Of a DNA stretch of 64,000 bases, positions 36,008-59,115 are shown one piece after another. The stretch spans positions 2,550 through 66,549 of the forward strand of contig JAFSOR010000021.1 in assembly GCA_017446885.1 (NCBI GenBank), in the 5' to 3' direction. The notes under the pieces were generated by a model. That model saw nothing but the letters and a program-made list of their open reading frames with translations. It was not told the origin of the DNA and did not search any database. Within the stretch, counting starts at the first letter, position 1, and every line of letters starts with the position of its first letter. Source of the stretch: Spirochaetia bacterium (lineage in GTDB: Bacteria > Spirochaetota > Spirochaetia > CADAEX01). The position numbers were made by a program, and so were the translations under genes.

Positions 36008-37270
36008 TCAACTCGCCACAATAATACGGGCATAACCGCGGTTACCAGTTTTCACGGAGAAAGTGTAATCCGACGAGCGTCTGACAGCATATCCGCCCGG
36101 TCCTCCCTGTCCATAACCTGCCGGGGCATTTGCATATCCGTTTGTATTCCTCGATATTGTAGTCAAGCCTGACGGGGTAGTCAAACTATAGATCTGCCCG
36201 CCATATTGGGTGAATGAGACCTTTGTATAGGAAAGATAATCATCGTTATTCTCATCCGAGTCTCTGTATACTCGAGTTACATTTGCAACTTTAAGAGCAG
36301 ATATTATGTTCCAACTGCTGCCGCTATTTGAGGATATTCTGATATAAAGAGGATAGCGGGTGTTTTTGTTCGGATGACTGTTCATATAGTATTGAAACCG
36401 CATAGTGCCACGGCTGGAATATCCGCTAACAATTTTGGTGGTGTTTTTATACCAGCACTGCTGGACTATTCCTGGACGGGTTGTATAATCAATGATTTTT
36501 CTCTCCATATCAGAATCAACATCATATATATTATACCTGCGGTTGACTTGAGCACCCGATGAACCGGCAGAACCTGTTATAAGTCGACTGCCCGACTTGT
36601 TTATATAACTTGCTGCCGCAGCACCGCCTGCGTATAAACGGATAGTTTCCCCTCCTGATACATTAGCAGTAACGGGAACCAAGTTCGTATCTATAGTGTT
36701 GTTGTAACTGAATGTCCCATAACTTCCAGAAGCATATATGCCGACCTCACAGTAATCATCGCCAACTGCTTTCGTTGCATAATCGCTAGCCCCACCGCCA
36801 CCACGGCAGTCTGCATACATGCGTTTGATGAATTTTGGCAGGATGACATCAATATACTTGTTGGATGTATCGTATGCAATGACCTTAGTTCCGACAAGAG
36901 TCCACTTTGCATATAACGTCATATCTTCATTTACAATGTCGGTGTCCAAGTTGAAAGGCTGAGTCAGTGCCGAATCTTTATACCAATTTGTTTTGAGCAC
37001 CTGTATTGAATAAGTTATATTAGACAGTGTATAGCTGGCAGTTGCTACAATGACATTGGCAGAACCTATTACACCACCTCTCTGGACTTCTATTGTCTGT
37101 GGCATTGATACAGATGACCAGCTGTTCCCAGATATGTTATAATATGCTGTGTTCTGGCTGAAAGTGACCACTGCCTTCGGCGGCCACACCTTCCGGCCGT
37201 TGATATATAAATCTTTGACAGGTCTGCCGTTGAGGAACAGTGTTTTTACATTGGAGAAATCAACTGCCAT
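36008..37270 (-). CDS. Phage tail fibre-like protein
   Basis: 420 aa, Gly/Ser/Thr/Tyr-rich (...GGGGASDYATKAVGDDY..., ...GYGQGGPGGYAV...). Last gene of the tail module. Start overlaps the J-like gene stop. Confidence 0.45.
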   Translation of the reverse strand: MAVDFSNVKTLFLNGRPVKDLYINGRKVWPPKAVVTFSQNTAYYNISGNSWSSVSMPQTIEVQRGGVIGSANVIVATASYTLSNITYSIQVLKTNWYKDSALTQPFNLDTDIVNEDMTLYAKWTLVGTKVIAYDTSNKYIDVILPKFIKRMYADCRGGGGASDYATKAVGDDYCEVGIYASGSYGTFSYNNTIDTNLVPVTANVSGGETIRLYAGGAAAASYINKSGSRLITGSAGSSGAQVNRRYNIYDVDSDMERKIIDYTTRPGIVQQCWYKNTTKIVSGYSSRGTMRFQYYMNSHPNKNTRYPLYIRISSNSGSSWNIISALKVANVTRVYRDSDENNDDYLSYTKVSFTQYGGQIYSLTTPSGLTTISRNTNGYANAPAGYGQGGPGGYAVRRSSDYTFSVKTGNRGYARIIVAS

Positions 37271-40200: not shown

Positions 40201-42905
40201 AGTGCCTCGTCCAGTTCCTCCCTTGTCACATATCCCGGAGGAATCTCCGCCGATGAATCAGATGGTTTCTGTGTGATATTGGACTTATATTCGGGAATTG
40301 TTCCTGAATCATAAATTGCCTCGTCATAATTGACCAGATCCAGAGTAAAGCCTCTGTCGCTTCTCTTAATCTGGCTTATCAAATAAGGTGTTGCAATCCG
40401 GGTAAACTCGCCGTCACTATCAAGCTCTCCGAAACTTAGCACATTGCCTTCTTCCGGCTTCAGTTCATCTGTTTCAAGACTTTCAGAAATTACTATAAGT
40501 TTATCGGTATATCCGTCACCCTCAACCTTGAGTGACAGGGGTTTTGTGCCGTCCTGTGCAGTGCAGCTGATTATCACGCCGTATTCTTTCCCGGCTTCAA
40601 ATGTCACTTTGCCGTTCAGGTATATCCTTGCCAGACGGCCGCCAATATATCCCAGCTCGTTGATTACTGCATGACCTGTGCCAATTTTCAGGCTGTCGTC
40701 CTGAAGAAGCACTTTAGAATAAGGTGTAAGGAAAACGCCCTCGTTGCCCACCTCTATAGTGGTTGTCTTGGGTCGCAGTGCTTCTATTGCCATGAGACGG
40801 CGGGCATATTTGACAACGTGCTCATGTGTGGTGATTCCAGTTGCGTCAATATCTTTGATAAGGCTGTCATTGGTAAGCGGCAGTGCCTCGCCGTTCACCT
40901 CACGCATCACTATATACGTATCTTCCTGCCATAGCTCGTTGGCAGAGTTTATATATTTTATACGAAGCCCGTCAGTACGCCGTCCGAATGTCTTCTTATT
41001 CTGAATACTGATGATGTTCTGCGGATTGTACACATTGACTGCATTTTCCTGTGCCTTGTCTATGGCAATGGAGCGTCGGCCATATATATCAGTGTAGAAA
41101 CAGGCCCCTGTTGCCTCCATAATGTAATTGATTAAGTCATCTTTCTTAAGCTCGGTGGTAAGTGCATAATCGAAATAGAAGTTATTCTGCTCGCAGTACT
41201 CATAGAATACTCCGTAACTGTCAAGGTCGATTTCAGAATCCAGCCGACGGCTTGCAGGGTGTCGGTCACTGGTTTCTATCTCTAAAGCCCATGCGGCAGG
41301 GTTGCGTGTCGCAGTCTTGGTATTACTCCATTGCGTGCCGTTCCATGTCCGGGCGGTGCCTGTCGTTATAGTGTTTATTTTCTTCAGCTTATCCTTGTTG
41401 TTGTCAGATGCTTTAAGTCTTATACCCAACAGGGTACAGAAAGCCTGTTCCCTGCTCTCTATGACACTGCATGACACCAGGCCTGCCGTACCATCGTCCA
41501 GAGTTCCAGCTGGCGAGGATGATTTAGCAGGGTCGAAGCACACACTCTGATAATACAGGCAGTAACATTCATTGTGACATTTGCTGTCGGTAGATCCGTT
41601 GTTCCTAAGCCTTATATAGATAGCGGTCTGATTGTTGTTATACAGCGTCCTATAATCGGACAGACTGAAATCTTTATGCGCCACATAGCGTAGTTCTTTG
41701 TTTGGCTTGTTCCTGGTGAACACATTGGTGCTTACCCGGGAAGATGTGGTCTGCGTATAAGAAGCTGTTATAGAGTATTCAGCTCCTCTGCCATCGTCGT
41801 AATCCCCGATATATTTAACATCTATAGTAAGGCTCTGCCCTGAAATTCTTACATCAGTACCAGATTTAAAACTCCATATTTCCGGGTGTTCCTTAACATA
41901 TTTTACAGATTTATGTTGCCTGTTGCCATATGTATATTTACCCTCATATTTGGTGGTTGCTGTCTGTAATACACCTGCAAATGTGAAATCAATCCATGAA
42001 ATACCACCATCAAGTGAATATTGCGGTGTTATTGTCACGCTGGTGCTTTTCTTCTTGTTGCTGTCATCAATCTCATAAAGACCATATGGAAATGTGATTG
42101 CAATATCAACGTTCTTAGCATAAGGGTCGAGTGTGTATGTCAGATAATCTTTTGTTCCTCCGGAAACCACACTGTCCTTTGGTATCTCCTCTTGGCAGTC
42201 ATGGGAATCCACCTTGTAATTCAATGCAGGCAGAGATGAAAGAGGGTTGCCGTCCTGTGCTATCTCTATGCTTCCACCGTCTGCAAAAATCCCCGGATCA
42301 ATAGCACTTGCCCCTTCCTGCGGTGCTGTTCCTGTGTACTTTTTGATTACCACATCATCGATGGCGATCTGATGGAACACCTGCTTGTTGAACCCGCAGG
42401 CAAGTATATTGTTGGTAAACTGATTGACTCCGTCAGCACCTGAAATTTCATAGAACGGTGAACAGAGAAGATAAGGGGTGAAGAAACTTTTTCCCACGAT
42501 ATATGGCAGCTGTTTGCCTGTTGCATATTCATTTGACGCACCACGGAGGAACGGACGGTTGTCAATCTCGCTTTTATTTGCTGCATTCTTCAGTTTCTCT
42601 AAGTCTTTCTTTGCCTTTTCTGCCGCAAGTTTCGCCTTATAGCTTGCGACACCGGCAGCAATGGCAGTAATACCTGCCACAACCGCAAGAACAATAGCGG
42701 TGGCGGTCCATCCGGGGACAAGCCTTATAGTTACGGTCTCGCCATCCTGCAATATGTGGTCATCTTTGACGGTCTTTCCGTCTATATGGATTATCGCATT
42801 GCTTAGATCTAAATCCGGCAGTGCTTCTTTGATTGTCTGTCCTGCCTGCACTTCAACAGGAGTGTTCCTGCCTGCAAGTTCCCTGAATAAATTCGCTTTC
42901 ATCAA
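37260..42905 (-). CDS. Phage tail tip / host-specificity protein (J-like, 1881 aa) with N-terminal gpI-like ubiquitin-fold domain and TM segment
   Basis: N-terminal ~65 aa ThiS/MoaD-like beta-grasp pattern (PVEVQAGQTIKEALPDLDL...IHIDGKTVKDDHILQDGETVTIRLV), then hydrophobic helix ATAIVLAVVAGITAIAAGV, a K/A-rich coiled coil, and a ~1750-aa beta-rich body. Sits after the K-like gene as lambda I-J does after K. Confidence 0.65.
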   Translation of the reverse strand: MMKANLFRELAGRNTPVEVQAGQTIKEALPDLDLSNAIIHIDGKTVKDDHILQDGETVTIRLVPGWTATAIVLAVVAGITAIAAGVASYKAKLAAEKAKKDLEKLKNAANKSEIDNRPFLRGASNEYATGKQLPYIVGKSFFTPYLLCSPFYEISGADGVNQFTNNILACGFNKQVFHQIAIDDVVIKKYTGTAPQEGASAIDPGIFADGGSIEIAQDGNPLSSLPALNYKVDSHDCQEEIPKDSVVSGGTKDYLTYTLDPYAKNVDIAITFPYGLYEIDDSNKKKSTSVTITPQYSLDGGISWIDFTFAGVLQTATTKYEGKYTYGNRQHKSVKYVKEHPEIWSFKSGTDVRISGQSLTIDVKYIGDYDDGRGAEYSITASYTQTTSSRVSTNVFTRNKPNKELRYVAHKDFSLSDYRTLYNNNQTAIYIRLRNNGSTDSKCHNECYCLYYQSVCFDPAKSSSPAGTLDDGTAGLVSCSVIESREQAFCTLLGIRLKASDNNKDKLKKINTITTGTARTWNGTQWSNTKTATRNPAAWALEIETSDRHPASRRLDSEIDLDSYGVFYEYCEQNNFYFDYALTTELKKDDLINYIMEATGACFYTDIYGRRSIAIDKAQENAVNVYNPQNIISIQNKKTFGRRTDGLRIKYINSANELWQEDTYIVMREVNGEALPLTNDSLIKDIDATGITTHEHVVKYARRLMAIEALRPKTTTIEVGNEGVFLTPYSKVLLQDDSLKIGTGHAVINELGYIGGRLARIYLNGKVTFEAGKEYGVIISCTAQDGTKPLSLKVEGDGYTDKLIVISESLETDELKPEEGNVLSFGELDSDGEFTRIATPYLISQIKRSDRGFTLDLVNYDEAIYDSGTIPEYKSNITQKPSDSSAEIPPGYVTREELDEALDNIISSSPEIPDTPTGVRAVATERGFELSCAVNNEGLRNDIQNVVFTIKRPNNTEESVVANGIKGVYYFDREIDGYPEADVIQTYRVTAMAINIYGGESEESTAVAPDTASYGTWIVGTPVITERTNKRSLHLHLEQPTGQREIYGIIRYRIQISRYDDVATDTMERIWYKPDLSVTADPYGAETNYKVDTDPAPVPDYVLATADYSQTVPLEGQSRTPAAPSDTIYYFRIVPVNETTGVVGNPTETGQMTARATGARDVVLARLGDGSQHPDALTAKNIYAENLTAIAGTFSQVQGDAETSDNYWKGMDTNEPEFRVGNDIGLESQKTAGGEEIGTDDDDAEYMHYVHGHLWLKLKSFVIKTRETLLNGAMSLYNAAKNFRNYLDYSGITAQAKDGSNWVDKGFIRFTNDGSVMLTNTPDSFATYRLEPPASTTKIYHLDVNISDTDGSNTENLVIESGACGAISSPVLDVQGGLRGYFQGVLKKAGVTTKQINYNVAAFWSNSNINISAVHGNEAAGYKIVNNQIIPCVVNIETDVITEYEAITYITSEGFTGARAWKYGSIWNWVFTSVVYSSALNVYFMRYVYYDSVEGHIWGGIGRSAGFSDGVVYAIMWRGGSTVYEPATDSQIMITKHNFYRGSRYEMTTYTIPDGFTIKVGAARGEYFFALNASGTLRVYHLPDMTYREITNSDFSSFMDNAIYSWEDSQGIGYVTILGSSRRYVVKSDDLTVFQIDFAPVGKGGVFADETGDYILGTDSNKNVKKYYSDGTAVTLGVGVSSNLFLPDDRTDKVFTVSSSGYYFPGVNQSLVAEKHYAFWFRGSRIRFGKVTIETSTVDWLYCRITATGNTVSWYIVRPALVGGELDVFKSGSESLAGYGLESDNDNLDFILDGAVEEFTVDNTDIPDSKMLQMVQYKLPYGNGILPESDQFIVNAKYSEKVISNAFWCKKADEQIVLSGTYDDNNQSFSFTIAGVANNGS

Positions 42906-44059: not shown

Positions 44060-46843
44060 CTATATGCCCCAATAGTCACCTGACATTTCCTGCTCTGCCA
44101 CTGCAAGGGACTTTCCGTATCTGCCTTTCTTAAGGCTCTCGTTCACACGTGCATCAATCATTATTTCTATCTTGTCCTTTGACAGCCGGGGCTTTGCAGT
44201 AACTATGTTGGATGCAGAATTATTGATGACAATATTGGTGCCTCCGCCGCCGTTAGATCCACTGTTGATGAAATCCCACAGTGCTTTCTGCTGTCCCATG
44301 TTCATGACCATCTCCCTGCTGTTGAGGTTTGCGGCTATGTTGTCACCATGCAGGGAAGACCCGCCCACGATACCTCCTGTAGAGAATGATGGAGGGGTAG
44401 GCTTGCTTGCTATGATTGATGCAACCTGCACCGCACCTGCAGCACCTACAAGTGCACCTGTAATAAGGCCTGCAATGCCGCCCTCTGCTATTGCCTTTGT
44501 CACTCCCTGTGCAATGTTTGCGGTTGCCTGTAATATAGACGCTCCCCACTGCCAAAGTTCAATTCTGTACTGCTGCTGTGCCGCATCCTTCTTTATCTTT
44601 GTGACCTTCTTGTTGTATTCTTCCTCGCTGATTTCTCCGTCCTGGTATTTTTCTTCAAGGGCTGCGATTTCCGCTGCACTCTGGTTCTGGACTGTCTGTA
44701 TCATCAGGTCGCTTGCATCTTTCATAAGGCTTACTGCATCATCTGTGTAGCCTTTCATCTCTGTAGCAATGTCGGAGAACAGCTGTCTGCGGTTCTTGAT
44801 GTATGCTTCGTCAAGCTGCTCCATCGCATCAAGCTTTTCTTGTTCACTTAGAACCTCGCTGTCGTTTATCGCCTTTCGCATGTCGGCTATCTGTTGATTC
44901 TTGTCTATATATCTGTCCCAGTATGTCTCTTGCTTTTCTGCCACGGCATCAAGATTGCTGATAATCTCATCCCTTGCAGACTCTTCTTTGTCGACACGCT
45001 CTTTTATTGCCCTTTCTACAGCATCTGTTTCCTTTTGGAGCAGCTCGTTGTATTTGACATTGTATTCCTCCTGTAGCTTCAGCTTCTGCTCTTGGAGAAT
45101 GTTCTCATCGGCCATCTTCTCTTCATAGAGTGCAGCCAGCGCCTGCCGCTGGTCTCTGATGCGCTCTACCTCGTTCCGTTTATCTGTGACATCTATGGCG
45201 TCGAGGGCGTCTTTCAGTGATTCCGCATTCCTTGCTGAAATGATGGCTTTCCGCTTTTCATCGAACTCTTGCTCTATCCTAAGCTTTTCATTCTCTTCCA
45301 GATATTTGTTGTCAACAATAGCTTTGTATTCGGCATCCAGCATTTCAAGAACTGCGTCATACTGGTTCTTTACAATGCATTGTGCATCCTCGGATGCATT
45401 CTGGAGTTCTGCCTCAAAATCCTTTATCTTCTCTGTCAGTTCACTTTTGCCTGTTCCCGCTACTGCAGTCTTGCCCCAGCTGGCAATGTCAGCACGTGCA
45501 TTCACTTCATGCTCATAATTTCCACTGTTGCCGATGAAAGCCGGGTCGCTCATCATCTTTACATATGCGGCAAATGCCGTGTTGTACATCTCCTGCGCCT
45601 CGGCTTCTTCGCTTATCTCCTCGCCGTTGGCACGTCTTGCCGCTATCTCTGCCTGCTTCTGCCTTATGGTCTCATCATACTGTGCCCGGAGTGTATCACG
45701 CTGGTTTATCTGTGATTCCTGTAAGGCTATGGCCTCCTGTTCTTTCTTGATTCTTTCTTCTTCCGCTATTGCAGCCTGATTGGCATCTTCCTCTGCTTTC
45801 TTTGCATTATCCCTTAAGGAAGTCCATTTGACATTGTTCCTGATATATTCTTCATACTGCTTGTTGAGGTTTTCAAGATTCCGTGTGTATGTCTCCTGGT
45901 CTATCTTGCCTTTATGCAGAAATTTGTTCTGTTGTTCTATTTTTTTGTTGTATTCTTCAAGATAATAACTGTTTGCTTCAATCAGTGCGTCATATTGGCC
46001 TGCGGTGACATTGCCGTCTTCCAGTCCCTTTAAAGCCTTTTGCAGTTCTCTGTGTTTTTTAAGTGCGGTTGCAGTCTCGGAAACCAACCTTGCAAGGGAG
46101 GTATACCAAGGGTTGAGTGTCTGCTGGATTGAGGCACCTATCTCTTCCTTTACATCACCGATGGCATTTTTAAGTTTCTCGTGTCCTTTAAGCTCATCCG
46201 CAAGCCGCTTTGCGTTGCCTTCATACTGCTTGGCTACAAAATCAATAGCCTTGCCGTTTTTCAGTTCCTCTGCGGTAAGGTTCTTCAATGCCGGGACTGT
46301 CATTCCTAACCGTCCGATCTGGCCGGAGTATGAAAGGTTGAGTGCCCTTACAGCCTCGTCCAAGGAGACAGTGCCTTCCGCTGCAAGGTCAAGAGAAGCC
46401 GACATTATCTTCATTATCTGCTCCTCTGTCCTGCCGGAGTTTGCAAGATGTGACATGAACGGAATCAACTGCTCGTCACCTACAGCTGCCAAACCTTGCA
46501 GTGACGAGGCGTAATCTTCCAGTCTTTTTACAGAAGTACTGTCAAGGTAGGGGTTGTTCTTGGCCGCTGTCTCCAGCCTGATTTCCGCCGAACGCTGGGT
46601 TTCGTATGCAGCTGAAAGCTCGTTGATATATGCGATTGTAGATTTGATTCCGTCCTTAATTCGATTAAAAAGTTGTAAAGCATTGTTAAGAGGTACCGCA
46701 CTGCTTAACATTTTACCGAAGTCGATTTTTTTAGCTTCTTTTCCCAGATTCTGTAAATTTTGTTTTATTTTATTCAGATCTCGCTGAATATCATTGCTTC
46801 CATCAATTTTAGCAAGGAATTTTACTTGTCCGTCATCTGCCAT
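44060..46843 (-). CDS. Tail tape measure protein
   Basis: 927 aa, long E/K/Q/A-rich coiled coils. C-terminal Gly-rich hydrophobic segment (GGIAGLITGALVGAAGAVQVASIIA). Located between chaperone and tip genes. Confidence 0.85.
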   Translation of the reverse strand: MADDGQVKFLAKIDGSNDIQRDLNKIKQNLQNLGKEAKKIDFGKMLSSAVPLNNALQLFNRIKDGIKSTIAYINELSAAYETQRSAEIRLETAAKNNPYLDSTSVKRLEDYASSLQGLAAVGDEQLIPFMSHLANSGRTEEQIMKIMSASLDLAAEGTVSLDEAVRALNLSYSGQIGRLGMTVPALKNLTAEELKNGKAIDFVAKQYEGNAKRLADELKGHEKLKNAIGDVKEEIGASIQQTLNPWYTSLARLVSETATALKKHRELQKALKGLEDGNVTAGQYDALIEANSYYLEEYNKKIEQQNKFLHKGKIDQETYTRNLENLNKQYEEYIRNNVKWTSLRDNAKKAEEDANQAAIAEEERIKKEQEAIALQESQINQRDTLRAQYDETIRQKQAEIAARRANGEEISEEAEAQEMYNTAFAAYVKMMSDPAFIGNSGNYEHEVNARADIASWGKTAVAGTGKSELTEKIKDFEAELQNASEDAQCIVKNQYDAVLEMLDAEYKAIVDNKYLEENEKLRIEQEFDEKRKAIISARNAESLKDALDAIDVTDKRNEVERIRDQRQALAALYEEKMADENILQEQKLKLQEEYNVKYNELLQKETDAVERAIKERVDKEESARDEIISNLDAVAEKQETYWDRYIDKNQQIADMRKAINDSEVLSEQEKLDAMEQLDEAYIKNRRQLFSDIATEMKGYTDDAVSLMKDASDLMIQTVQNQSAAEIAALEEKYQDGEISEEEYNKKVTKIKKDAAQQQYRIELWQWGASILQATANIAQGVTKAIAEGGIAGLITGALVGAAGAVQVASIIASKPTPPSFSTGGIVGGSSLHGDNIAANLNSREMVMNMGQQKALWDFINSGSNGGGGTNIVINNSASNIVTAKPRLSKDKIEIMIDARVNESLKKGRYGKSLAVAEQEMSGDYWGI

Positions 46844-46900
46844 ATCATGCTCCTTGACATTGTTTATAATGTCCTGTTATATTTAAAACGAGGTTGATAA

Positions 46901-47026
46901 ATGGGAATTTTTATAATCCTGTTGATATTCATTTTCTCACTCGGTCCACTTGTTGCATTTTTAGTGTGGGGCTATAAATGCTGGTCAAAAGAGTATGATA
47001 AAATAATTAGTTATATAAAAAAATAA
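46901..47026 (+). CDS. Candidate small hydrophobic peptide (41 aa) on opposite strand between tape measure and chaperone genes
   Basis: ATG 46901 preceded by AGGT. Encodes MGIFIILLIFIFSLGPLVAFLVWGYKCWSKEYDKIISYIKK (one TM helix + basic tail). Lies in a locally AT-rich 190-bp gap. Confidence 0.25.
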   Translation: MGIFIILLIFIFSLGPLVAFLVWGYKCWSKEYDKIISYIKK

Positions 47027-47034
47027 ATGTATCA

Positions 47035-47682
47035 TTAACCCTTTCCACCGTTCAACCAGTTCTCAAATTCCGCCAGTGCCTCATCATCTCCAGAATCATC
47101 GGCAGGCAGTTCCCACGCCGCACGCAGTTTCTCCATATGCCGTGTGTACCTGTCAGGTTTCCTGCCGTCACTCTCCCATAGCCTATATCCAATAATCTCA
47201 TTCAGCTTTGTGTCATGCAGTCCCCGGAAAAGCGACTGGAACTTGTACCAGTGCATATCGCTTTCCACTAAATCTATACCGTACTGCTCAAGGAACGCTG
47301 CAAAGATGTAGTCTGCATCTATGGCATAATCCACCGTCTTTTCATCACCAGAGGAACCTCTGGGTAGTTCCTGCGGTGGATTGCAGAAAGCGGTAAGTGC
47401 CTTGAACCCTGCAATCCTGTCAACAGGAATGTTATCCTGGTCACTGTACATGAAGTCAAAGTCGGCAAGCGTCGCATCTTTATCAGATGACAGCTCCAGA
47501 AACCTGATCCAGTATTTAAATGATGTGTGTACATAATATAAAATGCCTTCCACCTCAACGGCAGAAGGCAGTACAGCTTTCTTCAAGTCAATCACGGCAT
47601 CACTCCGCAGGGGTGAAAGTACCGTCGCTGAATGTGCCTGCAATGAATGTAGGAACTCCAGCACCTGAAAGGGTGATTGCAC
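47035..47682 (-). CDS. Phage protein at tail-assembly-chaperone position
   Basis: 215 aa, acidic C-terminus. Sits between major tail and tape measure genes. Overlaps the major tail gene by ~80 nt, so the true start may be internal. Confidence 0.35.
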   Translation of the reverse strand: MQSPFQVLEFLHSLQAHSATVLSPLRSDAVIDLKKAVLPSAVEVEGILYYVHTSFKYWIRFLELSSDKDATLADFDFMYSDQDNIPVDRIAGFKALTAFCNPPQELPRGSSGDEKTVDYAIDADYIFAAFLEQYGIDLVESDMHWYKFQSLFRGLHDTKLNEIIGYRLWESDGRKPDRYTRHMEKLRAAWELPADDSGDDEALAEFENWLNGGKG

Positions 47683-51648: not shown

Positions 51649-51815
51649 TTGCCCAGTATCATGCCAGCACCCGTATAAAGCATGGTCTCCCAGCCCGGCT
51701 TGCCGATGAAGAAGCCGATTACTGCAACGGCCAGAAGCATAGCCCCGGTAACCTTTGCTCCGTCCAAGTCAAAGTCTTTGTCACCCAGTGTTGAAGTAAG
51801 CAAGTTATGCTTCAT
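51627..51815 (-). CDS. Holin-like small membrane protein
   Basis: 62 aa with two hydrophobic segments (GAMLLAVAVIGFFIG; MLYTGAGMILG) and charged C-terminus. Immediately downstream of the CHAP gene. Confidence 0.45.
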   Translation of the reverse strand: MKHNLLTSTLGDKDFDLDGAKVTGAMLLAVAVIGFFIGKPGWETMLYTGAGMILGKCIRENT

Positions 51816-52222
51816 TTCCGCCTCCGGAGCAGTCCCAGACAGTTGTGCTTGTCACGCAGGGCAAGTTTGGCCCCGTCCTGCCTGCAGCCGTCCTGCTCGA
51901 ATACAAGCATCTTGTCAGCATTCACCCAGCAAAGGAATATTGCCACATGTCCATAACGGTTGGTCGCTGTCCTGTCCCATACTGCAACATCTCCATATCT
52001 GGCAGTTATGGTGTTCTCTGTTGTGAAATATTTCTGCTCCAGCGGCATCTTAGAGTAGTTGATATACAAATCCCGTGCACCTTCCACCGCTCCTGTATGC
52101 TCCCTGATCTCCAGAACCTCTTTGACATACTGCCTGAAAAGGTCAACGCACTGGGCACCGAAGGCACCGTCAAAATCTACTTTCTTACCCAGATACTTGT
52201 TTATAAACTCAATGAAATTCAT
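51812..52222 (-). CDS. CHAP domain peptidase (endolysin candidate)
   Basis: 136 aa. Catalytic Cys context FGAQCVDLFRQY and His context GHVAIF, typical of CHAP amidase/peptidase domains. Confidence 0.7.
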   Translation of the reverse strand: MNFIEFINKYLGKKVDFDGAFGAQCVDLFRQYVKEVLEIREHTGAVEGARDLYINYSKMPLEQKYFTTENTITARYGDVAVWDRTATNRYGHVAIFLCWVNADKMLVFEQDGCRQDGAKLALRDKHNCLGLLRRRK

Positions 52223-52491
52223 TCATCTTCCTCCAAGTCTGTAATACGGTGGTTGGCAACCTTTGCCTTCTCCTCCAGGACTGCTGTCCGCTGCTCCAGC
52301 TTGTAGGTTCTTTCAATCACGCTGTTATGCTTGTCCACACGGTCCGAAAGCGTCTCTATCTCCTGCTTGATAAGTGCCAGCTTGACAGCCATCTCCTCCG
52401 CAGCCCGCCTGTTCTGGTATGTGTTTGTGATAACCACCGCAAGCACAGTGAAAGCCCCGGTAATCAATGCTCCGATAATTGATGTATCCAT
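52219..52491 (-). CDS. Small membrane-anchored coiled-coil protein (holin/antiholin-like)
   Basis: 90 aa. N-terminal TM IIGALITGAFTVLAVVI then coiled coil. Precedes CHAP with a 4-nt overlap. Confidence 0.4.
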   Translation of the reverse strand: MDTSIIGALITGAFTVLAVVITNTYQNRRAAEEMAVKLALIKQEIETLSDRVDKHNSVIERTYKLEQRTAVLEEKAKVANHRITDLEEDE

Positions 52492-52505: not shown

Positions 52506-52958
52506 TCAAGTTCTGTTCCAGCTGGTGCCGTACTTGTCGATGATAATCTTGAAGTCCTCCAGGTCATGAGGGCGGATATAATATTTCTCGCTGCCGTCAT
52601 CCTCATATTCAATGCCTACATGCAAGAGCTCGTGGAACAGCAGAATCCGGATCTGATCTTCTGTAAAATATTTGATATTTGGGAGAAACAGTGTAATTGT
52701 GAAGTCATAGTTTATTGCCCATTGATTCTTGGTCTGGACTTTCTCGCACTGTCCGTTTACGATAATGTCCTTGCCTTTCTTTTTGGCAAAACCGCTTTCA
52801 AGGTATGCAATCCTTGCAGACGAATTTCTGATATATGCCAGTTCCGGCTCGGTCGCTATAAGATTTTCTGCAATCTTCTTATACTGTTCATTGATTTTGC
52901 GTGAATCCATATCTGTACTCCTTACAGATATAGTCATTTGAGGAATTTTGAGGGACAA
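52506..52958 (-). CDS. Putative phage zinc metallopeptidase (HExxH)
   Basis: 150 aa with LLFHELLHVG motif (HExxH). Small phage-associated metallopeptidase-like family. Confidence 0.45.
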   Translation of the reverse strand: MSLKIPQMTISVRSTDMDSRKINEQYKKIAENLIATEPELAYIRNSSARIAYLESGFAKKKGKDIIVNGQCEKVQTKNQWAINYDFTITLFLPNIKYFTEDQIRILLFHELLHVGIEYEDDGSEKYYIRPHDLEDFKIIIDKYGTSWNRT

Positions 52959-52997
52959 AAAACCGCCAGACGGCGGTTCGTTAAAATAATAGATTAA

Positions 52998-53441
52998 TTA
53001 TTGTTCTGGGTTTGCTTGGCTCTTCTGTATTCTTTCTTTACGATTGCTGTTCATGCCATAAATAAAAGCGCCTATCATAGTAGCAGCTGCGCCGATGATA
53101 ACTCCAAATCCTCCGGCATCTTTTCCGTTGAACACCAAAGCAAAGCCCCCAATAATACATAACAGACACAAACAACAGGCAATAATTTGGCCATTTCGGG
53201 CTCTTTTTATTCCAGAGAAAATAACAGCCTTCTCAAGTTCCATACGATGTGCAACTTGTTTTTCATATGAGCTCAATAAACGCTCTGTAATTCCAGAATG
53301 TAAATGTTCCAGACGTTCAAGTTCATCCGCTGGAGGAAGAATACCATGGCGCTCGCTTAAACTGATTTCCATGGCATCTCCTTTACCTGGGACATGCAGA
53401 GACCGTTGTGTTATTTTTTTGGTTTTAGGCATTAGCGACAA
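52998..53441 (-). CDS. DUF2335-like phage-associated membrane protein
   Basis: 147 aa. ILPPADELERLEHLHSGITERLL...HRMELEK resembles the DUF2335 signature. Two C-terminal TM segments. Confidence 0.45.
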   Translation of the reverse strand: MSLMPKTKKITQRSLHVPGKGDAMEISLSERHGILPPADELERLEHLHSGITERLLSSYEKQVAHRMELEKAVIFSGIKRARNGQIIACCLCLLCIIGGFALVFNGKDAGGFGVIIGAAATMIGAFIYGMNSNRKERIQKSQANPEQ

Positions 53442-53619
53442 CCTGGTTAAAAGCTACTTTTGCATCTTCTTTAAGTGCTTGCGCATCAGCTCTAAGTGCC
53501 CTTTCGTCTGCCTTTGCTTCGTTAGAGGATGTATTATATTCATTAGAAATACCAAATAAATCAATAACACTCATAATCCCATCGACATATGTTGGGTTTG
53601 CAAATAAATATGTGGACAT
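53425..53619 (-). CDS. Small hypothetical protein
   Basis: 64 aa ORF with Ala/Lys/Glu-rich helical C-terminus. Start at the edge of the AT-rich block. Confidence 0.3.
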   Translation of the reverse strand: MSTYLFANPTYVDGIMSVIDLFGISNEYNTSSNEAKADERALRADAQALKEDAKVAFNQVVANA

Positions 53620-53788
53620 TTTTCTCCTCTGAAGATAATTTACCTTTTTTCTTTCTTAATTGTCAACCTATGCTAAACCAACGCTTGCAAATATTTAAAG
53701 AAACGCTTATTTATCTGACTCGTCATCGGGAAAGAAATGATCAATGATTTTGAAATCATCATCTATTTTAATCATGAACTTTTTATCT

Positions 53789-54028
53789 TTAGTATTTATA
53801 TTTATATGAATAAAACTTAGACCAATGACATTTTATTTTCTGCCCTAAATCGTTAATAAGAATAAAATTTAAAGTATAATCTTCAAATCCTAAAATAACA
53901 TATTCCTTCCCTGGAGTTAAATTAAATTTATCCTTATCGATGTCGCTGGAAAATGTAGCCTTTACAATAGCGGCAATATCAATTAAGCGGTCTAGTCTGA
54001 ATTTCATAGTTTCTAATCTCCTTCTCAA
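53789..54028 (-). CDS. Small hypothetical protein in AT-rich cassette (likely starts at internal ATG 54007)
   Basis: Internal ATG preceded by GAAGGAGA RBS gives MKFRLDRLIDIAAIVKATF... (72 aa). AT-rich, atypical composition relative to the phage. Confidence 0.35.
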   Translation of the reverse strand: MRRRLETMKFRLDRLIDIAAIVKATFSSDIDKDKFNLTPGKEYVILGFEDYTLNFILINDLGQKIKCHWSKFYSYKYKY

Positions 54029-54214
54029 TTAAACTCATTACTGCTCTTGCAACTCGTCTAGGACTTTCGCTGCTAAAATACTCACTTACAGCTTCTGCAA
54101 AAAATTCTTGAGCATTTTTTGTCGCATATTCACTTAATTCGTTTTTTATTATTTCACGATTTGAAATAAATTTAAAATCTGTTTTAAGTATTGGAATACA
54201 TCATAATCTCCTCT
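54029..54214 (-). pseudogene. Small frameshifted ORF in AT-rich cassette
   Basis: Strong AGGAG-N5-ATGATG start gives MMYSNT* (stop after 6 codons). The +1 frame continues ...KTDFKFISNREIIKNELSEYATKNAQEFFAEAVSEYFSSESPRRVARAVMSLIEKEIRNYEIQTRPLN. Shift lies in an A-run. Confidence 0.3.
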
Positions 54215-54236
54215 GGTGTTTATTCCGTTTTGTGGG

Positions 54237-54656
54237 TCATAAATCGATAATATATTTTTTTATTAGACAATCCGCAAAAACACTTTCATAACTAAAAATA
54301 ATTGCAAGTTCATTATCCTCTTCCCTTAATATTGAAACATATTCATCAAAATCTGTTATTGTTGGCAGAACTTTGAAAAGTTTTTCTGCCATTTCCTTTT
54401 CAAACCCTGCAAAAAAGAATGGAGGTGGATATTTATCAATATTTCCAGCGATTGAGTTTCTAATAGGAATATATATATTGTCCAGTTTTTCAATTTCCTT
54501 TTCAAGTACTGTTCCTTTTAGGCTTTCTTGCAAGCGGCGTCTGGCTTTATTATATTCTGCCCAATTATGGAAAAACTTATATAAATCTGTGCCTTTCCAT
54601 TGCGAATCTACCAGTTTTTTCTTTTCTTCTGTCATTTCTTTACTCCACAATTTCAC
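54237..54656 (-). CDS. Hypothetical protein immediately downstream of the ADPRT domain (candidate cognate immunity/antidote protein)
   Basis: 139 aa, AT-rich. Start overlaps the stop of the gp7-ADPRT gene. No motif recognised. Confidence 0.4.
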   Translation of the reverse strand: MKLWSKEMTEEKKKLVDSQWKGTDLYKFFHNWAEYNKARRRLQESLKGTVLEKEIEKLDNIYIPIRNSIAGNIDKYPPPFFFAGFEKEMAEKLFKVLPTITDFDEYVSILREEDNELAIIFSYESVFADCLIKKYIIDL

Positions 54657-56442
54657 ATTCTAAAATAACCCTTTGCGGCCAAGATGTTACATTTTCAACC
54701 CTTGAATCAAGTATTTTTAATTTTGTATTAAGACCAAAGATTATTTCACTTTCTCTTATGTTTGTCGTTTTATATGCATGAGTTCCTTCGGGAACCCTAA
54801 TATTAAGTTTAACATTGCGATTTGTAAAAACATTTTTTTCCGCGACGCCTGACGTACTCATAAACCCCTTTTCTATGAAGATTCTACCTTTATCTATTTT
54901 ACCTGGCAACTTTGTAAAAGCGTTCTGCCACTTTAATTTATTATCATCTTGCGGCCATTCAACTCCTGCAATATAAGGTAAAGCATCAGCATCTACATTT
55001 CTTGTTACAATTATGTTTTCATTTATATTATTTCTCTTTATGATATTTTGTAAAGTTTCAACAACTTTTTTTTGACTGTCACTCAATTCTTCTTTCATTC
55101 GTAGACATTCATTAATATGCTTTGCATTTGTAGACGCTATATAACCACCCATACCAAATTTTCCATAAACAATTGAATGTTCTTCTTTAGTTATAGGATG
55201 TTTTATTTCTTTAAATTCTTCTTTGGTTAGTGTTTTATATTCAATTTTTGGTTTTTCTGGCTCAATAATCTTTGTTTTCTCAATTATAGAAGTCGCCGAG
55301 GGTTTTGCGGTTGGTGGTTTCAGGAATCTCGGCTGTATATCATTGCCCACATGCTCCCGGGTGCTGTCACGCTCTATGCCTGTCTGTTTGGTGAAATCCC
55401 TTGCCTTTGCCTGCCATTCTCCGATTTTCTGCCTTGCTTTGGTGTTGTCGAGTCCTGCGGCATCCTGTGTAAGTGCAACACGCTTGTAGAGTCTGATATT
55501 CCGCTCTATGCTACGTAATGCCTGCTCGCCCTCATACCGGGTGAAGGTTTTCCCGTTATAGGTGACTTTCTCACTGGCCATCTGGTCAAGCTCTTTCTCT
55601 GTATATTCTTTCTCCATGCCCTCAAAATATGGGTAGAATGAGTGCCGGCAGTTTATGCCGCATATTCCGGTAGGACTTCCAAGTCCGCACACACTGAAAG
55701 GGCGGTAGTTTGGATTCTTCCCACTTCTGGAGAATATCTGTCCCTGCCATTCCTCATGTTCAGGCCTTGCACCCAGATGCGCCGATGTCTCCACAAGGTC
55801 ACATTCTACAGCATCGCAGTTGTTCAGTGTCATCTGTGCGGCTGTCTGGTTTATGCCAGTCAGTATGTTCATTCTTACGGCGGATTCAATACTTCGCCGT
55901 ACAGGCTTTCCGTTCTCGTACTGAACGGTAGTGACTCCGGCATCTGCCAGATCGTCAACGGCGGTCTTGATTGCTGCATCATATGTGAAAGCCCCGCTTC
56001 TGACCTTGGAGACGGCTCTGTTTGCTTCCCGGACAAAAGCCTCCTGACTTGTCGCCGCTGTGGTAAGAGTAAGCCGGGAAAGGTCGCTGTAGCACTTCTG
56101 GACAGTCGCCAGTATCTCCTGTGCGGTAGGTGTGCTTACAGTCCGCCCAAGTGCATCAAGGAATATCTTGTTGTCGTTCTGGGTGTTCTTATCCAGTGCT
56201 TCCTGTACTACTGCCTTGACTGCTGCGGCAACATTCTTGTCATATCTCCGGATTTTCTTCTCAATATCTGCCTTAAGGCTCCCGGATTCCGCCAGTATCT
56301 GCGCCTGCCACCTGTCCATATCAGACGCCTTTCCGAGTCTGGCTATACGTCTTGCCATGTCACGCAGTATGTCGGTCTCGAGCTGTGAGTAAATATCTAC
56401 AAGTTCATCTGACAACCCAGCAAGATAACGGGGTGGAAGCAT
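54640..56442 (-). CDS. Phage minor head protein (SPP1 gp7 / Mu F-like) with C-terminal ADP-ribosyltransferase toxin domain
   Basis: 600 aa. The N-terminal 400 aa resemble gp7-family head morphogenesis proteins. A Pro/Lys-rich linker follows. The C-terminal ~200 aa carry R-S-E class ADPRT motifs: YGKFGMGGYIASTNAKHINECLR, VTRNV (Arg), FMSTSGV (STS), ESEIIF (ExE). Confidence 0.8.
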   Translation of the reverse strand: MLPPRYLAGLSDELVDIYSQLETDILRDMARRIARLGKASDMDRWQAQILAESGSLKADIEKKIRRYDKNVAAAVKAVVQEALDKNTQNDNKIFLDALGRTVSTPTAQEILATVQKCYSDLSRLTLTTAATSQEAFVREANRAVSKVRSGAFTYDAAIKTAVDDLADAGVTTVQYENGKPVRRSIESAVRMNILTGINQTAAQMTLNNCDAVECDLVETSAHLGARPEHEEWQGQIFSRSGKNPNYRPFSVCGLGSPTGICGINCRHSFYPYFEGMEKEYTEKELDQMASEKVTYNGKTFTRYEGEQALRSIERNIRLYKRVALTQDAAGLDNTKARQKIGEWQAKARDFTKQTGIERDSTREHVGNDIQPRFLKPPTAKPSATSIIEKTKIIEPEKPKIEYKTLTKEEFKEIKHPITKEEHSIVYGKFGMGGYIASTNAKHINECLRMKEELSDSQKKVVETLQNIIKRNNINENIIVTRNVDADALPYIAGVEWPQDDNKLKWQNAFTKLPGKIDKGRIFIEKGFMSTSGVAEKNVFTNRNVKLNIRVPEGTHAYKTTNIRESEIIFGLNTKLKILDSRVENVTSWPQRVILECEIVE

Positions 56443-56458: not shown

Positions 56459-57853
56459 TCAGAAATTGAACGGTGACGCTGCCACAGGCTCTTCCGGCAC
56501 ATTCGCCTTTGCCTGCTCCTCGTCCTCTCCGAAGAAATCTTTTCTGTATTCCCACTTGTTCTTCACACCCTGGCTTACTTCCTGCAGTGCCATCTGTTTA
56601 GCCGCTGTCATGTCCTTACGCGTTGTGTCATCGTTCCAGATTATGCGTATATCGCTGTTCCCACTTCCAAGGCGGTATGCTGCCGCCATGTGTGCGAATA
56701 CCGATGCACATGCATGGTATTTTGCTTCAATCTCATCTTCAATCTTGTCAACGATTGCGTACAGTTCCTGCCTGCCGCCGGTGTACTGCGTCGCTGTCTG
56801 TATCTGGCTTTCCATGTCGCTGATTGTGCCTTTCCCGATATTACAGGTAAGCTCAATGCGCCTGAAAATCTGTTGCAGCATCTCATTCTGCTGTGTAGTC
56901 CTTAATGCAGGGGAGTGTTCAACAATCTTCTTGCCATCTGTGCTACCGTCACCCTCAACTTTGACAATCAGCTTGTTAAGCTTAGGTGTCAGCTCCGACT
57001 TGGTGACAGATCCGTCACGTCTCTGCCGTCTCTGGAACATATCCCTGTCCGCGAAGACAATAAGCTCTCCAGCTTCCTGCTCCCACTTCATGCGTGCATA
57101 CTGTTCATCTGCATCTCTGATAAGGTCTTCTGCACCAGCTATAATAGCCACAGGTACTTTTGATCCGTCAATCTTATTGACAGAATGATTCCTGAACTCA
57201 ATTATCATAGGCTGCTTGACACCATGCCATTCATAAGCATGAGTTAGTTCTGCGGTATGTCTGCAATCAGCAAGAGAAGCCTTTGACAGGACACCGCCAT
57301 TGTATCTGTAAAGCTCACATTCAACTGAATGAGTCCCGGCCGTGTAGCGGTGACGTTCTGCAAGCAGGAACTTCTTGTTGCCATCATCTATCTGCTTTAG
57401 CAGTAATGCCTCTGTGAGTGTTCCGTCAAAGTCATAGCTTACAGGCAGGTAGTTGCCGAGTGGAAGTAACTCATACTGCAACTTGCCGTTGCTGTATACA
57501 GGACGTAAAAGACAGCTTCCGAGCAATGTTATATAATCAACCACGGCGTCAACATTTTTGTTCAAATGCTCCATGACAGATTTTATAGCTTCATTGTCAA
57601 CTTCAATTCCAATCTCACGAGATACCATTGTATCAAGCCGTCCTGCAATCTGGGCAAGAACACCGCATGACGGTACCTTGTCATTCCATGGTGCGACTCC
57701 TGCCATCATGTCATTCCAAAGACTTATTGCCCTGTACATCTCGGTTGAAATGTTTGTTTCTACACCTGTTATCTGTTCGATGGTGTAGTTGCGGAATAGA
57801 TTCAGAATATTCATGAAGAAACTCCTTAATCTCTCAAACATAATTGTCTCCAT
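56459..57853 (-). CDS. Portal protein (SPP1 gp6-like)
   Basis: 464 aa, between TerL and minor head protein. Portal-like sequence. Confidence 0.8.
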   Translation of the reverse strand: METIMFERLRSFFMNILNLFRNYTIEQITGVETNISTEMYRAISLWNDMMAGVAPWNDKVPSCGVLAQIAGRLDTMVSREIGIEVDNEAIKSVMEHLNKNVDAVVDYITLLGSCLLRPVYSNGKLQYELLPLGNYLPVSYDFDGTLTEALLLKQIDDGNKKFLLAERHRYTAGTHSVECELYRYNGGVLSKASLADCRHTAELTHAYEWHGVKQPMIIEFRNHSVNKIDGSKVPVAIIAGAEDLIRDADEQYARMKWEQEAGELIVFADRDMFQRRQRRDGSVTKSELTPKLNKLIVKVEGDGSTDGKKIVEHSPALRTTQQNEMLQQIFRRIELTCNIGKGTISDMESQIQTATQYTGGRQELYAIVDKIEDEIEAKYHACASVFAHMAAAYRLGSGNSDIRIIWNDDTTRKDMTAAKQMALQEVSQGVKNKWEYRKDFFGEDEEQAKANVPEEPVAASPFNF

Positions 57854-57864
57854 CTATATAGTCA

Positions 57865-59115
57865 TTATTGGCCCCGACGCCGCCATACTTCCTCCAGGGC
57901 ATAACGTACAGCAGCCATCGAATGGTCAGGCTGCCCCTGCGGGTATCCGGTCAGGATCTCTCCAGTCCTCTTGTCCATCTCATATTCATAAAGAGAAAAC
58001 TCATCCGCGGCGTTTGGACAGCGTTCCGGATCTACCACTATCTTGTTCAGCTGCTGCAGCCACTTGAAGCCGGCATCCAGGGAGCCGGGTCCCTTAATTG
58101 CCCCGCGGATATTCCAACCCCACGTGTGGAAATCTGCCACGCTCTTGTTCTCTGCAGAGTCGGCAGTAATCCTGGATGACAGATCAAGCTTCTCTTTCCC
58201 CATGTGATTCTTCAGCTTCTCCGAAGCCTCCCAGTTGCCGTGCTTGTACAGGGTCAGCTCTGAGAATATATAGAGAGTCCTAGTCTTCATGTCATAGCTC
58301 ATGGCGTTGTACCTGAACGGATCCGGATAATAACCCCAGTCTATGCCATGATATAGCCATTCGAAGCTGGTAATCTCTTCGTCAGTTATCGGCCGGAGCT
58401 CGATATTCTCGAAGATATTAAGACCCGTTCCTGTAGGCTCGCCCAGAAAGATATTCCTGTATGCCCTCGGGTTGCGGCGTCTCATCTCCTCGGCCTCGTG
58501 CAGGAAGGCTTCTCCCAGCCATTCCCTTGGCACGCTCCTATAGTCAGACACATGGACATACTCGTCTGAATCAGGATGTCTGAGCCTGTCATTGCACCAG
58601 TTCCTGGCAGAGCTGGGAGGGTTGAAGGATTGGAAAACAAAGAATCGGCTTCCACCTCGCATAGTGGAGAGCTTGACAGTCTCCACATCGTTGGCCGTGA
58701 ACTCTGTAAGCTCCTCGAACCAGGTTATGGCAGTGTACCCTATAAGAGTCTTTATTGATTTAAGCCTGAGTGGATCGTTGGAACCGCGGAAAAAGATTGT
58801 CTGTCCGGTCGGTCTGAATGTGGCCTGGAGTGGTGACAGCGTGAAGTTCCACAGATGTGATACACCCAGTTTCTCAACAGCCCATCTTATCTGAGTATAA
58901 ACAGAATCCCTCAGGGTTTTGTCCACCTTACGCAGGCATACGGCGTTAAATTCCCTGTTCTGCATCATGAGGATGATTATTGCCAGGCTTATGAATGAGC
59001 TCTTGCAGCTTCCACGGCCTCCTGCTTCGGTGAACTTGGTATATTCTCCAGAAAGCACCTTTCGGAAGGTCTCCTTGAATGACTGCGGGAAAAGTGTACT
59101 TGTATGGATCTCCAT
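57865..59115 (-). CDS. terL: Terminase large subunit
   Basis: 416 aa. Walker A-like AGGRGSCKS near the N-terminus. C-terminal nuclease region with acidic motifs. PBSX/Terminase_3-like. Confidence 0.85.
   Translation of the reverse strand: MEIHTSTLFPQSFKETFRKVLSGEYTKFTEAGGRGSCKSSFISLAIIILMMQNREFNAVCLRKVDKTLRDSVYTQIRWAVEKLGVSHLWNFTLSPLQATFRPTGQTIFFRGSNDPLRLKSIKTLIGYTAITWFEELTEFTANDVETVKLSTMRGGSRFFVFQSFNPPSSARNWCNDRLRHPDSDEYVHVSDYRSVPREWLGEAFLHEAEEMRRRNPRAYRNIFLGEPTGTGLNIFENIELRPITDEEITSFEWLYHGIDWGYYPDPFRYNAMSYDMKTRTLYIFSELTLYKHGNWEASEKLKNHMGKEKLDLSSRITADSAENKSVADFHTWGWNIRGAIKGPGSLDAGFKWLQQLNKIVVDPERCPNAADEFSLYEYEMDKRTGEILTGYPQGQPDHSMAAVRYALEEVWRRRGQ

Follow-up and report, generated by a model that had tools for sequence, protein, structure and literature searches.

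A MuF-type minor head protein with a predicted C-terminal ADP-ribosyltransferase, probably a polymorphic toxin, in a spirochaete prophage

A predicted ADP-ribosyltransferase fused to a phage minor head protein

We analyzed a 600-aa open reading frame (ORF; 54640..56442, minus strand) in a 64,000-nucleotide stretch of Spirochaetia bacterium DNA (assembly GCA_017446885.1, contig JAFSOR010000021.1), referred to below as the window. Judged from its sequence, the encoded protein is an R-S-E ADP-ribosyltransferase (ART) fused to a MuF-type minor head protein, and we consider it probably a MuF polymorphic toxin, encoded by a temperate phage that has integrated into a Spirochaetia (Treponema-like) genome. 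The original prediction had placed an R-S-E ART domain at the C-terminus of a 600-aa minor head protein, and Pfam, searches of the Protein Data Bank (PDB) and a confident structural model agree with this assignment. It had passed over a candidate immunity gene downstream, as well as the earlier descriptions of the MuF toxin class.

In the Pfam scan of the 600-aa protein, PF06152 (Phage_min_cap2) matched residues 2-351 (E=4.1e-90, profile positions 1-365 of 366) and PF03496 (ADPrib_exo_Tox) matched residues 408-594 (E=1.1e-17, 64.5 bits vs. a curated cut-off of 23.4). Three parts were delimited: an N-terminal MuF module (aa 1-366; 55345..56442, minus strand; GC 0.51), whose family PF06152 is also termed MuF2; a junction with a Pro/Lys/Thr-rich linker, NDIQPRFLKPPTAKPSATSIIEKTKIIEPEKPKIEYKTLTK (aa 367-407; 55222..55344, minus strand), placed by the recombination breakpoint and the GC change point described below; and the R-S-E ART domain (aa 408-594; 54661..55221, minus strand; GC 0.32) with an ExE motif in its ADP-ribosylating toxin turn-turn (ARTT) loop, supported by Pfam, PDB profile, AlphaFold2 (AF2) and Foldseek results. 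In PHROGs, the protein matched phrog_581 ("minor head protein", E=4e-105 over aa 1-559) and also the ADP-ribosyltransferase exoenzyme family phrog_3895. The head domain had been called SPP1 gp7-like, which holds at the level of the superfamily but not of the family: PF06152 was the only head-domain family reported by Pfam, with no PF04233 match in the protein. CDD cl10072 groups the two families, and PF06152 and PF04233, the family that holds SPP1 gp7, are described as one superfamily (Jamet et al., 2017, PMC5576092).

The catalytic motifs are in the order and at the places that had been predicted. The motif Arg, R481 in VTRNV (55000..55002, minus strand), is followed 48 aa later by the STS motif S529-T530-S531 in FMSTSGV (54850..54858, minus strand), and the Glu of ESEIIF, which contains the ARTT ExE motif E564-S565-E566 (54745..54753, minus strand), lies 35 aa further on; translation of the window confirmed these coordinates. 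The NAD-pocket-like segment proposed upstream, GGYIASTNAKHINECLR, contains Y434, N444 and R448. In an alignment of 61 homologues Y434, N444, R481, S529 and E566 are invariant, while E564 is shared by 60 and R448 and S531 by 59 each, and by this alignment the conservation of the motifs is far above chance expectation. With Y434, N444, R448, R481 and the STS motif all present, the predicted NAD pocket is intact and the domain is a predicted enzyme. The ARTT motif is ExE rather than QxE in the window domain and in 60 of the 61 homologues. Among ARTs, Glu instead of Gln as the first ARTT residue goes with arginine rather than asparagine as the acceptor. The motif therefore suggests that the window ART is arginine-specific, which also fits Bxa, the MuF-ART of a Bacteroides prophage.

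An exhaustive HMMER search with aa 372-600 against 1.84 billion cluster representatives gave 372 matches at E<=1e-3, 114 at <=1e-10 and 19 at <=1e-30. The best full-length matches were 43-48% identical to the query, and most matches were proteins of 500-650 aa in which the matched region was C-terminal. PF03496 scored in 49 of the 61 aligned homologues, PF04233 in 36 and PF06152 in 12, and by these domain matches the ART subfamily is mostly MuF-borne (48/61). The window protein itself is public under two accessions, MBQ7746508.1 and MBR0318917.1, both labeled "hypothetical protein [Spirochaetia bacterium]". PADLOC and NCBIfam gave no match to it, phage records gave none to the region by blastn, and an IMG/VR scan with the ART domain retrieved no relatives. 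A word-indexed protein search with the ART domain came back empty although the 600-aa protein represents its own cluster in that index; negatives of this index for AT-rich queries that lean toward low complexity are to be treated with care.

The profile search and the structure prediction that had been proposed as checks both came out in favor of an ART, with a catalytic fold and with the motif residues on ART positions. In PDB sequence searches the motif residues aligned to the C3larvin motif columns (Arg, Ser-Thr-Ser, (Q/E)-x-E), and the family-profile search aligned the same columns with C3stau2 (1ojq, E=1.4e-18) and aligned Plx2A, C3cer, C3bot, Certhrax, Vis, SpvB and Tre1, a type VI secretion system (T6SS) effector, as well. 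R481 falls on the Arg of the YRG/YRL motif of C3larvin and C3stau2, the STS motif on the STS/STQ of C3-type chains, and the ExE motif on the QxE of C3larvin, C3stau2 and Plx2A. The AF2 model of aa 400-600, built from 28 homologues, has a mean predicted local distance difference test (pLDDT) score of 95.6 and a predicted template modeling (pTM) score of 0.90. Foldseek matched it in the PDB to C3cer, VIP2, Plx2A, C3bot1, Certhrax, CDTa, C2-I and iota Ia (E~1e-11, probability 1.00, TM 0.6-0.77). Pfam reported one ART domain with MuF ahead of it and no second, tandem ART fold, and there was no B-component-like gene among the scanned neighboring ORFs.

Composition and homology break together at the linker

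The sharp shift to AT-rich sequence that had been noticed at about 55330 was borne out. GC is 0.514 in the MuF module (55345-56442) and 0.316 in the linker and ART part (54640-55344; chi-square 67, p=2.5e-16), with GC at third codon positions at 0.54 and 0.21, respectively. GC falls at about 55300-55345, with the maximum-likelihood change point at 55292, and the low-GC island of ~53150-55450 is the only one in the 64-kb window.

Scanning one genome per species with aa 1-370 as the query, we retrieved 12 loci, mostly from Treponema (T. socranskii, T. pectinovorum, Treponema sp. Marseille-Q4130 and several metagenome-assembled genomes). Eleven of these had substantial matches, with 59-72% protein identity over the N-terminal module. 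In ten of the loci L002-L012 the nucleotide similarity to the window ends at 55344-55383, mostly at 55344-55367; L008 stands apart, its nearest nucleotide match ending at 55367. At the protein level the relatives are conserved through ..REYVGTxxGKQPxxxKP and diverge completely after it. The homology breakpoint and the GC break thus coincide.

The C-terminal parts of the relatives have a GC of 0.34-0.43, below that of their own N-terminal parts (mostly ~0.5), except for L002, whose truncated C-terminus has a GC of 0.52. Low GC is common to the cassette pool and so is not by itself proof of a recent event. The "recent domain swapping" of the original prediction is therefore upheld as to the swapping, given ten relatives with unrelated C-termini and two displaced tails downstream, while low GC is weak evidence of its recency; stronger evidence of recency is a 99%-identical cassette found elsewhere, described below.

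Relatives carry different C-terminal domains on the same head module

The domains beyond the junction differ widely. L010 ends in a papain-fold glutamine deamidase (Gln_amidase, PF15644, E=1e-10), L011 in an HExxH metallopeptidase, L004 and L008 in a domain with a weak CdiA_C match, and L003 and L005 in a Cys/His domain without family assignment. L007 (Treponema sp. Marseille-Q4130) carries a different ART (PF03496, E=3e-12) that is 30.5% identical to that of the window, and the L006 protein stops at the junction. Close N-terminal homologues with differing predicted C-terminal domains are what defines MuF toxins as polymorphic. In T. pectinovorum ATCC 33768 the MuF-metallopeptidase gene (L011, 6900-7500) lacks its N-terminal part and has a frameshift between HEYGH and EFFAE; it is probably decaying. 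Another partial copy (L012) lies on the main chromosome contig.

A candidate immunity gene and its stand-alone copy

Directly downstream of the toxin gene lies a 132-aa ORF (54237..54635, minus strand), extended to 139 aa from a GTG at 54656 in the mechanical ORF list. The toxin stop codon TAA (54642-54640) lies between a Shine-Dalgarno (SD) sequence, GGAG (54646-54643), and the ATG at 54635, so that the SD is within the last codons of the toxin and the ATG is 4 nt past its stop; the public gene calls have the same start and 132 aa. This ORF had no match in Pfam, PHROGs, NCBIfam or PADLOC, and an IMG/VR scan with the 132/139-aa ORF found no relatives. We also considered an immunity family common to the two ART toxins and rejected it, as the 139-aa window ORF and the 90-aa ORF after the L007 ART are dissimilar. 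In a further assembly of the same prophage (L019, NCBI JAFTAL010000089.1) the contig ends at window position 54633, at the toxin/immunity junction, a break that may reflect strain heterogeneity there.

Among 5.8 billion proteins the 132-aa ORF has a single homologue, a copy with 99% identity that occurs in two independent JGI metagenomes. In the contigs that carry it (L014 and L015), identity to the window is limited to 54179-54717, a span made up of the final 26 ART codons, the 132-aa ORF and the 58 nt after it. The contig sequence upstream of this span is unrelated and ends in a 35-nt palindrome. A gene that has lost its toxin and kept a stub of it is the pattern of an orphan immunity cassette, and the copy reads as such by sequence. 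Gene arrangement and orphan copy together make the 132-aa ORF a candidate for the cognate immunity gene.

The two contigs (L014 1-4491 and L015 1-1614; JGI 3300007961 and 3300011008) consist of arrays of small ORFs separated by the palindrome, CCTAAACGACCTTCCGATTTCGGAAGGTCGTAAAAC, of which there are eight copies in 4.5 kb. Besides the 99% copy of the 132-aa ORF, the cassettes hold two paralogues of the 74-aa ORF that trails the L010 deamidase toxin, a methyltransferase fragment and a 321-aa ORF that looks caspase-like by eye. The 132-aa copy is still joined to the 26 ART codons and to a glutamine-deamidase tail with its 73-aa partner. The window itself lacks the palindrome, and scanning the arrays against Rfam returned sub-threshold noise only; integron-like and REP-like elements are candidate natures for these arrays. 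That immunity genes against phage MuF toxins circulate independently as small cassettes is a tentative idea, to which we give a rather low probability.

Displaced toxin tails downstream of the candidate immunity gene

Two remnants of other toxins follow in the window. The first (54179..54259, minus strand) is the last ~27 codons of a glutamine-deamidase-type (PF15644) toxin, KNILSIYDPQNGINTRGDYDVFQYLKQ, found by tblastn, with the L010 toxin tail matched at E=4.6e-5 and L014/L015 matched too; nucleotide alignment agrees. Its reading frame differs from that of the 132-aa ORF, whose final codons it overlaps and whose stop codon it supplies. The 79-aa and 64-aa ORFs of the window are unrelated to the 74-aa immunity-like family of L010 and L014, and hence the partner gene of the deamidase is not in the window.

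The second remnant (53979..54176, minus strand) appears to be the last ~65 codons of a zinc-metallopeptidase toxin (..LSEYATKNAQEFFAEAVSEYF..; frame ..LSEYATKNAQEFFAEAVSEYFSSESPRRVARAVMSLIEKEIRNYE..) from which the HExxH part has been lost. It was recognized by weak, sub-threshold Pfam matches (E~2e-3) in which it aligned with the C-terminal portion of the ATLF and Peptidase_M90 profiles, and by tblastn matches (E 0.02-0.1) to Clostridium phage phiCT19406A and Streptococcus phage IPP26, in each of which the matched segment lies at the extreme C-terminus of a long head-module protein encoded near the portal, on its downstream side. The IPP26 protein has PF04233 (Phage_Mu_F), the phiCT19406A protein is without a Pfam match, and both have HExxH ~70 residues before EF[LV]AEA; the T. 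pectinovorum L011 gene reads HEYGH in one frame and SKEFFAETF in another. A word search with the remnant was empty and a PDB sequence search uninformative, while a degenerate pattern for AQEFFAEAVSEYF had no match in metagenomes and a similar pattern none in viral contigs.

The start of a 72-aa ORF (53789..54007, minus strand; SD AAGGAG at 54023-54018) overlaps the end of the frame of this second remnant. The mechanical ORF is 79 aa long, from a TTG at 54028, and the public gene call is 72 aa. Scans of Pfam, PHROGs, NCBIfam, PADLOC, the metagenomes and IMG/VR found no homologues. Its position makes it a candidate orphan immunity gene, which would have been the partner of the displaced metallopeptidase and have stayed behind with its tail. 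Two displaced tails downstream of the present toxin imply that the toxin cassette was exchanged at least twice in succession while the MuF scaffold stayed constant.

The locus lies in the head module of a prophage

The genes run in the order terminase, portal, MuF toxin, cargo island, lysis genes, and then scaffold, capsid and tape-measure. The terminase large subunit (57865..59115, minus strand) matched PF04466 (E=2e-37) and PF17288. The portal gene (56459..57853, minus strand) lies directly upstream of the toxin gene and was assigned by a match to TIGR01542 (A118_put_portal, E=1e-15, below its cut-off) and by its position between terminase and MuF. The cargo island comprises small ORFs, a DUF2335 membrane protein (52998..53441) and a "putative phage metallopeptidase" of family PF18894 (52506..52958). 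The 64-aa ORF downstream of the toxin locus lies behind a good sigma-70-like site (TTGACA-18-TAAATT, 53666..53637), and in the cargo region 52506-53619 a stretch of 125 nt (52855-52979) matches L014 3805-3930 at 95% identity. Between the island and the scaffold gene are an XhlA-like lysis gene (52219..52491) and a CHAP-domain lysis gene (51812..52222); L007 has in the same place a holin-like ORF and an ORF that resembles an N-acetylmuramoyl-L-alanine amidase by eye.

A second stretch shared with the palindrome arrays lies within the tail region. Window 46816-47187 (372 nt) is 98.7% identical to L014 3960-4331, where it sits between two palindrome copies, and its sequence context suggests a mobile mini-cassette; a 41-aa membrane-peptide ORF (46901..47026, plus strand) lies there on the opposite strand, between the start of the tape-measure gene and the preceding tail gene. 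Also in the prophage are a gene for a C-5 cytosine DNA methylase (PF00145; 60009-61373) and, downstream of the tape-measure gene, a 1881-aa ORF (37260-42905). No tRNA genes were found in the window.

Comparison with known systems

Zhang et al. (2012, PMC3482391) described polymorphic toxins fused to MuF; they counted spirochaetes among the lineages and predicted packaging into the phage head. Among the 191 MuF toxins of Jamet et al. (2017, PMC5576092) 14% were ARTs and 89% were followed by an ORF of <150 aa, and Iyer et al. (2022, PMC9503650) found many Alt/VIP2-family ARTs fused to MuF. The window locus shares the plan of this class: in a temperate phage, the gene that comes right after the portal gene encodes an N-terminal MuF and a variable C-terminal toxin, and is itself followed directly by an ORF of <150 aa. 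It differs in its two displaced 3′ toxin tails and its probable orphan immunity gene; the words "orphan", "recombination" and "Treponema" never occur in PMC5576092, which does not discuss stacked toxin tails. As the MuF-ART class had been described in 2012, 2017, 2022 and 2024, the locus adds another example and not a new kind of system. What the locus adds is a spirochaete as host, a readable succession of displaced toxin tails and an immunity cassette that occurs by itself elsewhere.

The nearest parallel with experimental data is Bxa of the Bacteroides stercoris prophage PhiBxa, a MuF-ART that is arginine-specific, toxic to bacteria and neutralized by a pair of immunity proteins encoded beside it (Alexei et al., 2024, PMC11699363). 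Going by its published description, it resembles the window protein in joining MuF to a C-terminal ART within a head morphogenesis region with small ORFs adjacent. In relatives of Bxa the N-terminal domain is joined to glutamine deamidases (PMC11699363), as it is at the window locus. The host phylum differs, and the Bxa locus has an ARH1-type hydrolase (BAH) of which there is none near the window toxin, where the immunity candidate is outside known families. The minor capsid proteins of Streptococcus phages Javan444, Javan206 and phiGBSVK-F1 combine PF06152 and PF03496 as in the window; they are ~596 aa long, lie between portal and scaffold with small ORFs after them, share ~25% identity overall and 33% in the ART, and are annotated merely as "minor capsid protein".

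The fold and the R / S-T-S / x-x-E layout of the window domain are those of C3bot, C3stau2, C3larvin, VIP2, iota Ia, CDTa and C2-I (PF03496). The C3 enzymes, however, have QxE and modify an asparagine of Rho, whereas the window domain has ExE, and the A components of binary toxins carry the ART fold twice, once as an adaptor domain, and depend on a B component, in contrast to the single domain on a phage head protein seen here. T4 Alt, a functional parallel to the injected effector of the original prediction, is an ART carried in the phage head and delivered with the DNA (PMC9503650). It is a separate protein without MuF fusion and belongs to a virulent myovirus. No immunity gene is known for it. 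As in contact-dependent inhibition (CDI) and Rhs systems, displaced toxin fragments and immunity genes pile up downstream of the active toxin and stand-alone immunity copies occur elsewhere (a concept cited in PMC11699363); those systems deliver by secretion systems, whereas the scaffold here is a phage capsid protein and the remnants amount to only 27 and 65 codons.

Discussion

As a MuF polymorphic toxin, the protein would work as follows. The conserved MuF2 domain, encoded right after terminase and portal, would be the head-associated module, and beyond the Pro/Lys-rich linker it would carry an exchangeable C-terminal effector, in this case a single-domain R-S-E ART of the C3/VIP2/Alt type. 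The AT-rich effector cassette would have replaced earlier toxin cassettes by recombination at the linker. As in other MuF proteins, the MuF domain would bring a few copies into the capsid, and these may enter the next host with the DNA or get out at lysis. Going by the ExE motif and by Bxa, the ART would move ADP-ribose from NAD+ onto arginines of bacterial proteins. In the producing cell the product of the coupled 132-aa ORF may bind the ART domain and block it, as the gene arrangement and the orphan copy suggest.

Several points weigh against this picture. Packaging and injection are carried over from what is held of the MuF family, for which delivery of the toxins is itself still hypothetical in PMC5576092, PMC11699363 and PMC12226406. 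Arginine specificity is read from the ExE motif by itself, and the closest solved sequence relatives are QxE, asparagine-specific C3 enzymes. The second remnant was identified from weak E-values and positional concordance. The 132-aa ORF is without homologues except its own 99% copy, belongs to no known family and gave a poor AF2 model (pLDDT 54.7), and ORFs between 52506 and 54656 had no match to an ARH1-family ADP-ribosylhydrolase (ARH) or a macro-domain, unlike the Bxa locus.

The alternative that fares best, though we think it unlikely, is that the ART is a non-lethal takeover effector akin to T4 Alt, injected to reprogram a specific host protein such as RNA polymerase, with the small downstream ORFs being unrelated morons. 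Iyer et al. (2022, PMC9503650) read the MuF-fused Alt/VIP2 head ARTs in this way; a phage has little benefit from killing a cell that it has just entered, and the 132-aa ORF lies outside known immunity families. Yet the scaffold of the relatives bears outright toxins (the glutamine deamidase, the CdiA-like domain and the metallopeptidase), and the tight coupling of the small ORF to the toxin gene and its survival with a toxin-tail stub in other contigs are hallmarks of toxin and immunity pairs. Moreover Bxa, the one MuF-ART that was tested, is promiscuous and lethal in bacteria (PMC11699363).

It is still less probable that the protein is an effector released at lysis, acting outside the lysogen on neighboring microbes or on cells of an animal host, with the MuF fusion incidental to its delivery. 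Bxa has been linked to epithelial-cell effects and gut colonization (PMC11699363), the XhlA-like and CHAP lysis genes lie within the same gene block, and the C3/VIP2 relatives are exotoxins of eukaryotic cells. This reading is opposed by the single ART on a structural head protein that has neither a signal peptide nor a translocation or B-component domain, by the immunity gene and its orphan copies, which imply a bacterial cytoplasmic target, and by the MuF association in 48/61 of the ART clade, which argues that the fusion matters.

We hold it very improbable that the domain serves mainly as an NAD+ glycohydrolase or a modifier of nucleic acids, in counter-defense or genome protection. R-S-E ARTs commonly have NADase side activity, and some members of the clade modify DNA or RNA (pierisin/ScARP; RNAylation by T4 ModB); MuF proteins have in addition been reported to bind phage DNA ends (PMC12226406). 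Against this, the sequence and fold neighbors of the window domain are all protein-modifying enzymes, the ExE ARTT loop is a protein-arginine signature, and the data do not indicate a nucleic-acid substrate. An inactive, decaying passenger of a defective prophage, for which prophage mosaicism, the toxin remnants and the frameshifted L011 relative could be cited, is hardly credible given the intact frame, the full-length MuF, the complete set of conserved catalytic residues, the confident predicted fold and the intact terminase, portal, scaffold, capsid and tape-measure genes.

The window locus leaves the knowledge of the MuF toxin class itself unchanged. As a probable MuF polymorphic toxin, it offers a cleanly delimited and well-preserved MuF-ART example from a spirochaete prophage, in a lineage little studied for MuF toxins. 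Its legible history, with a linker breakpoint, two tails, cognate and orphan immunity candidates and a near-identical stand-alone cassette, makes it a convenient test case for two questions: whether MuF toxins are really packaged and injected, and what role their immunity genes play. If MuF toxins are injected, the palindrome arrays would represent a collected defense against incoming phage effectors, and in the same arms race the stacked toxin tails of the prophage would stand on the side of the phage.

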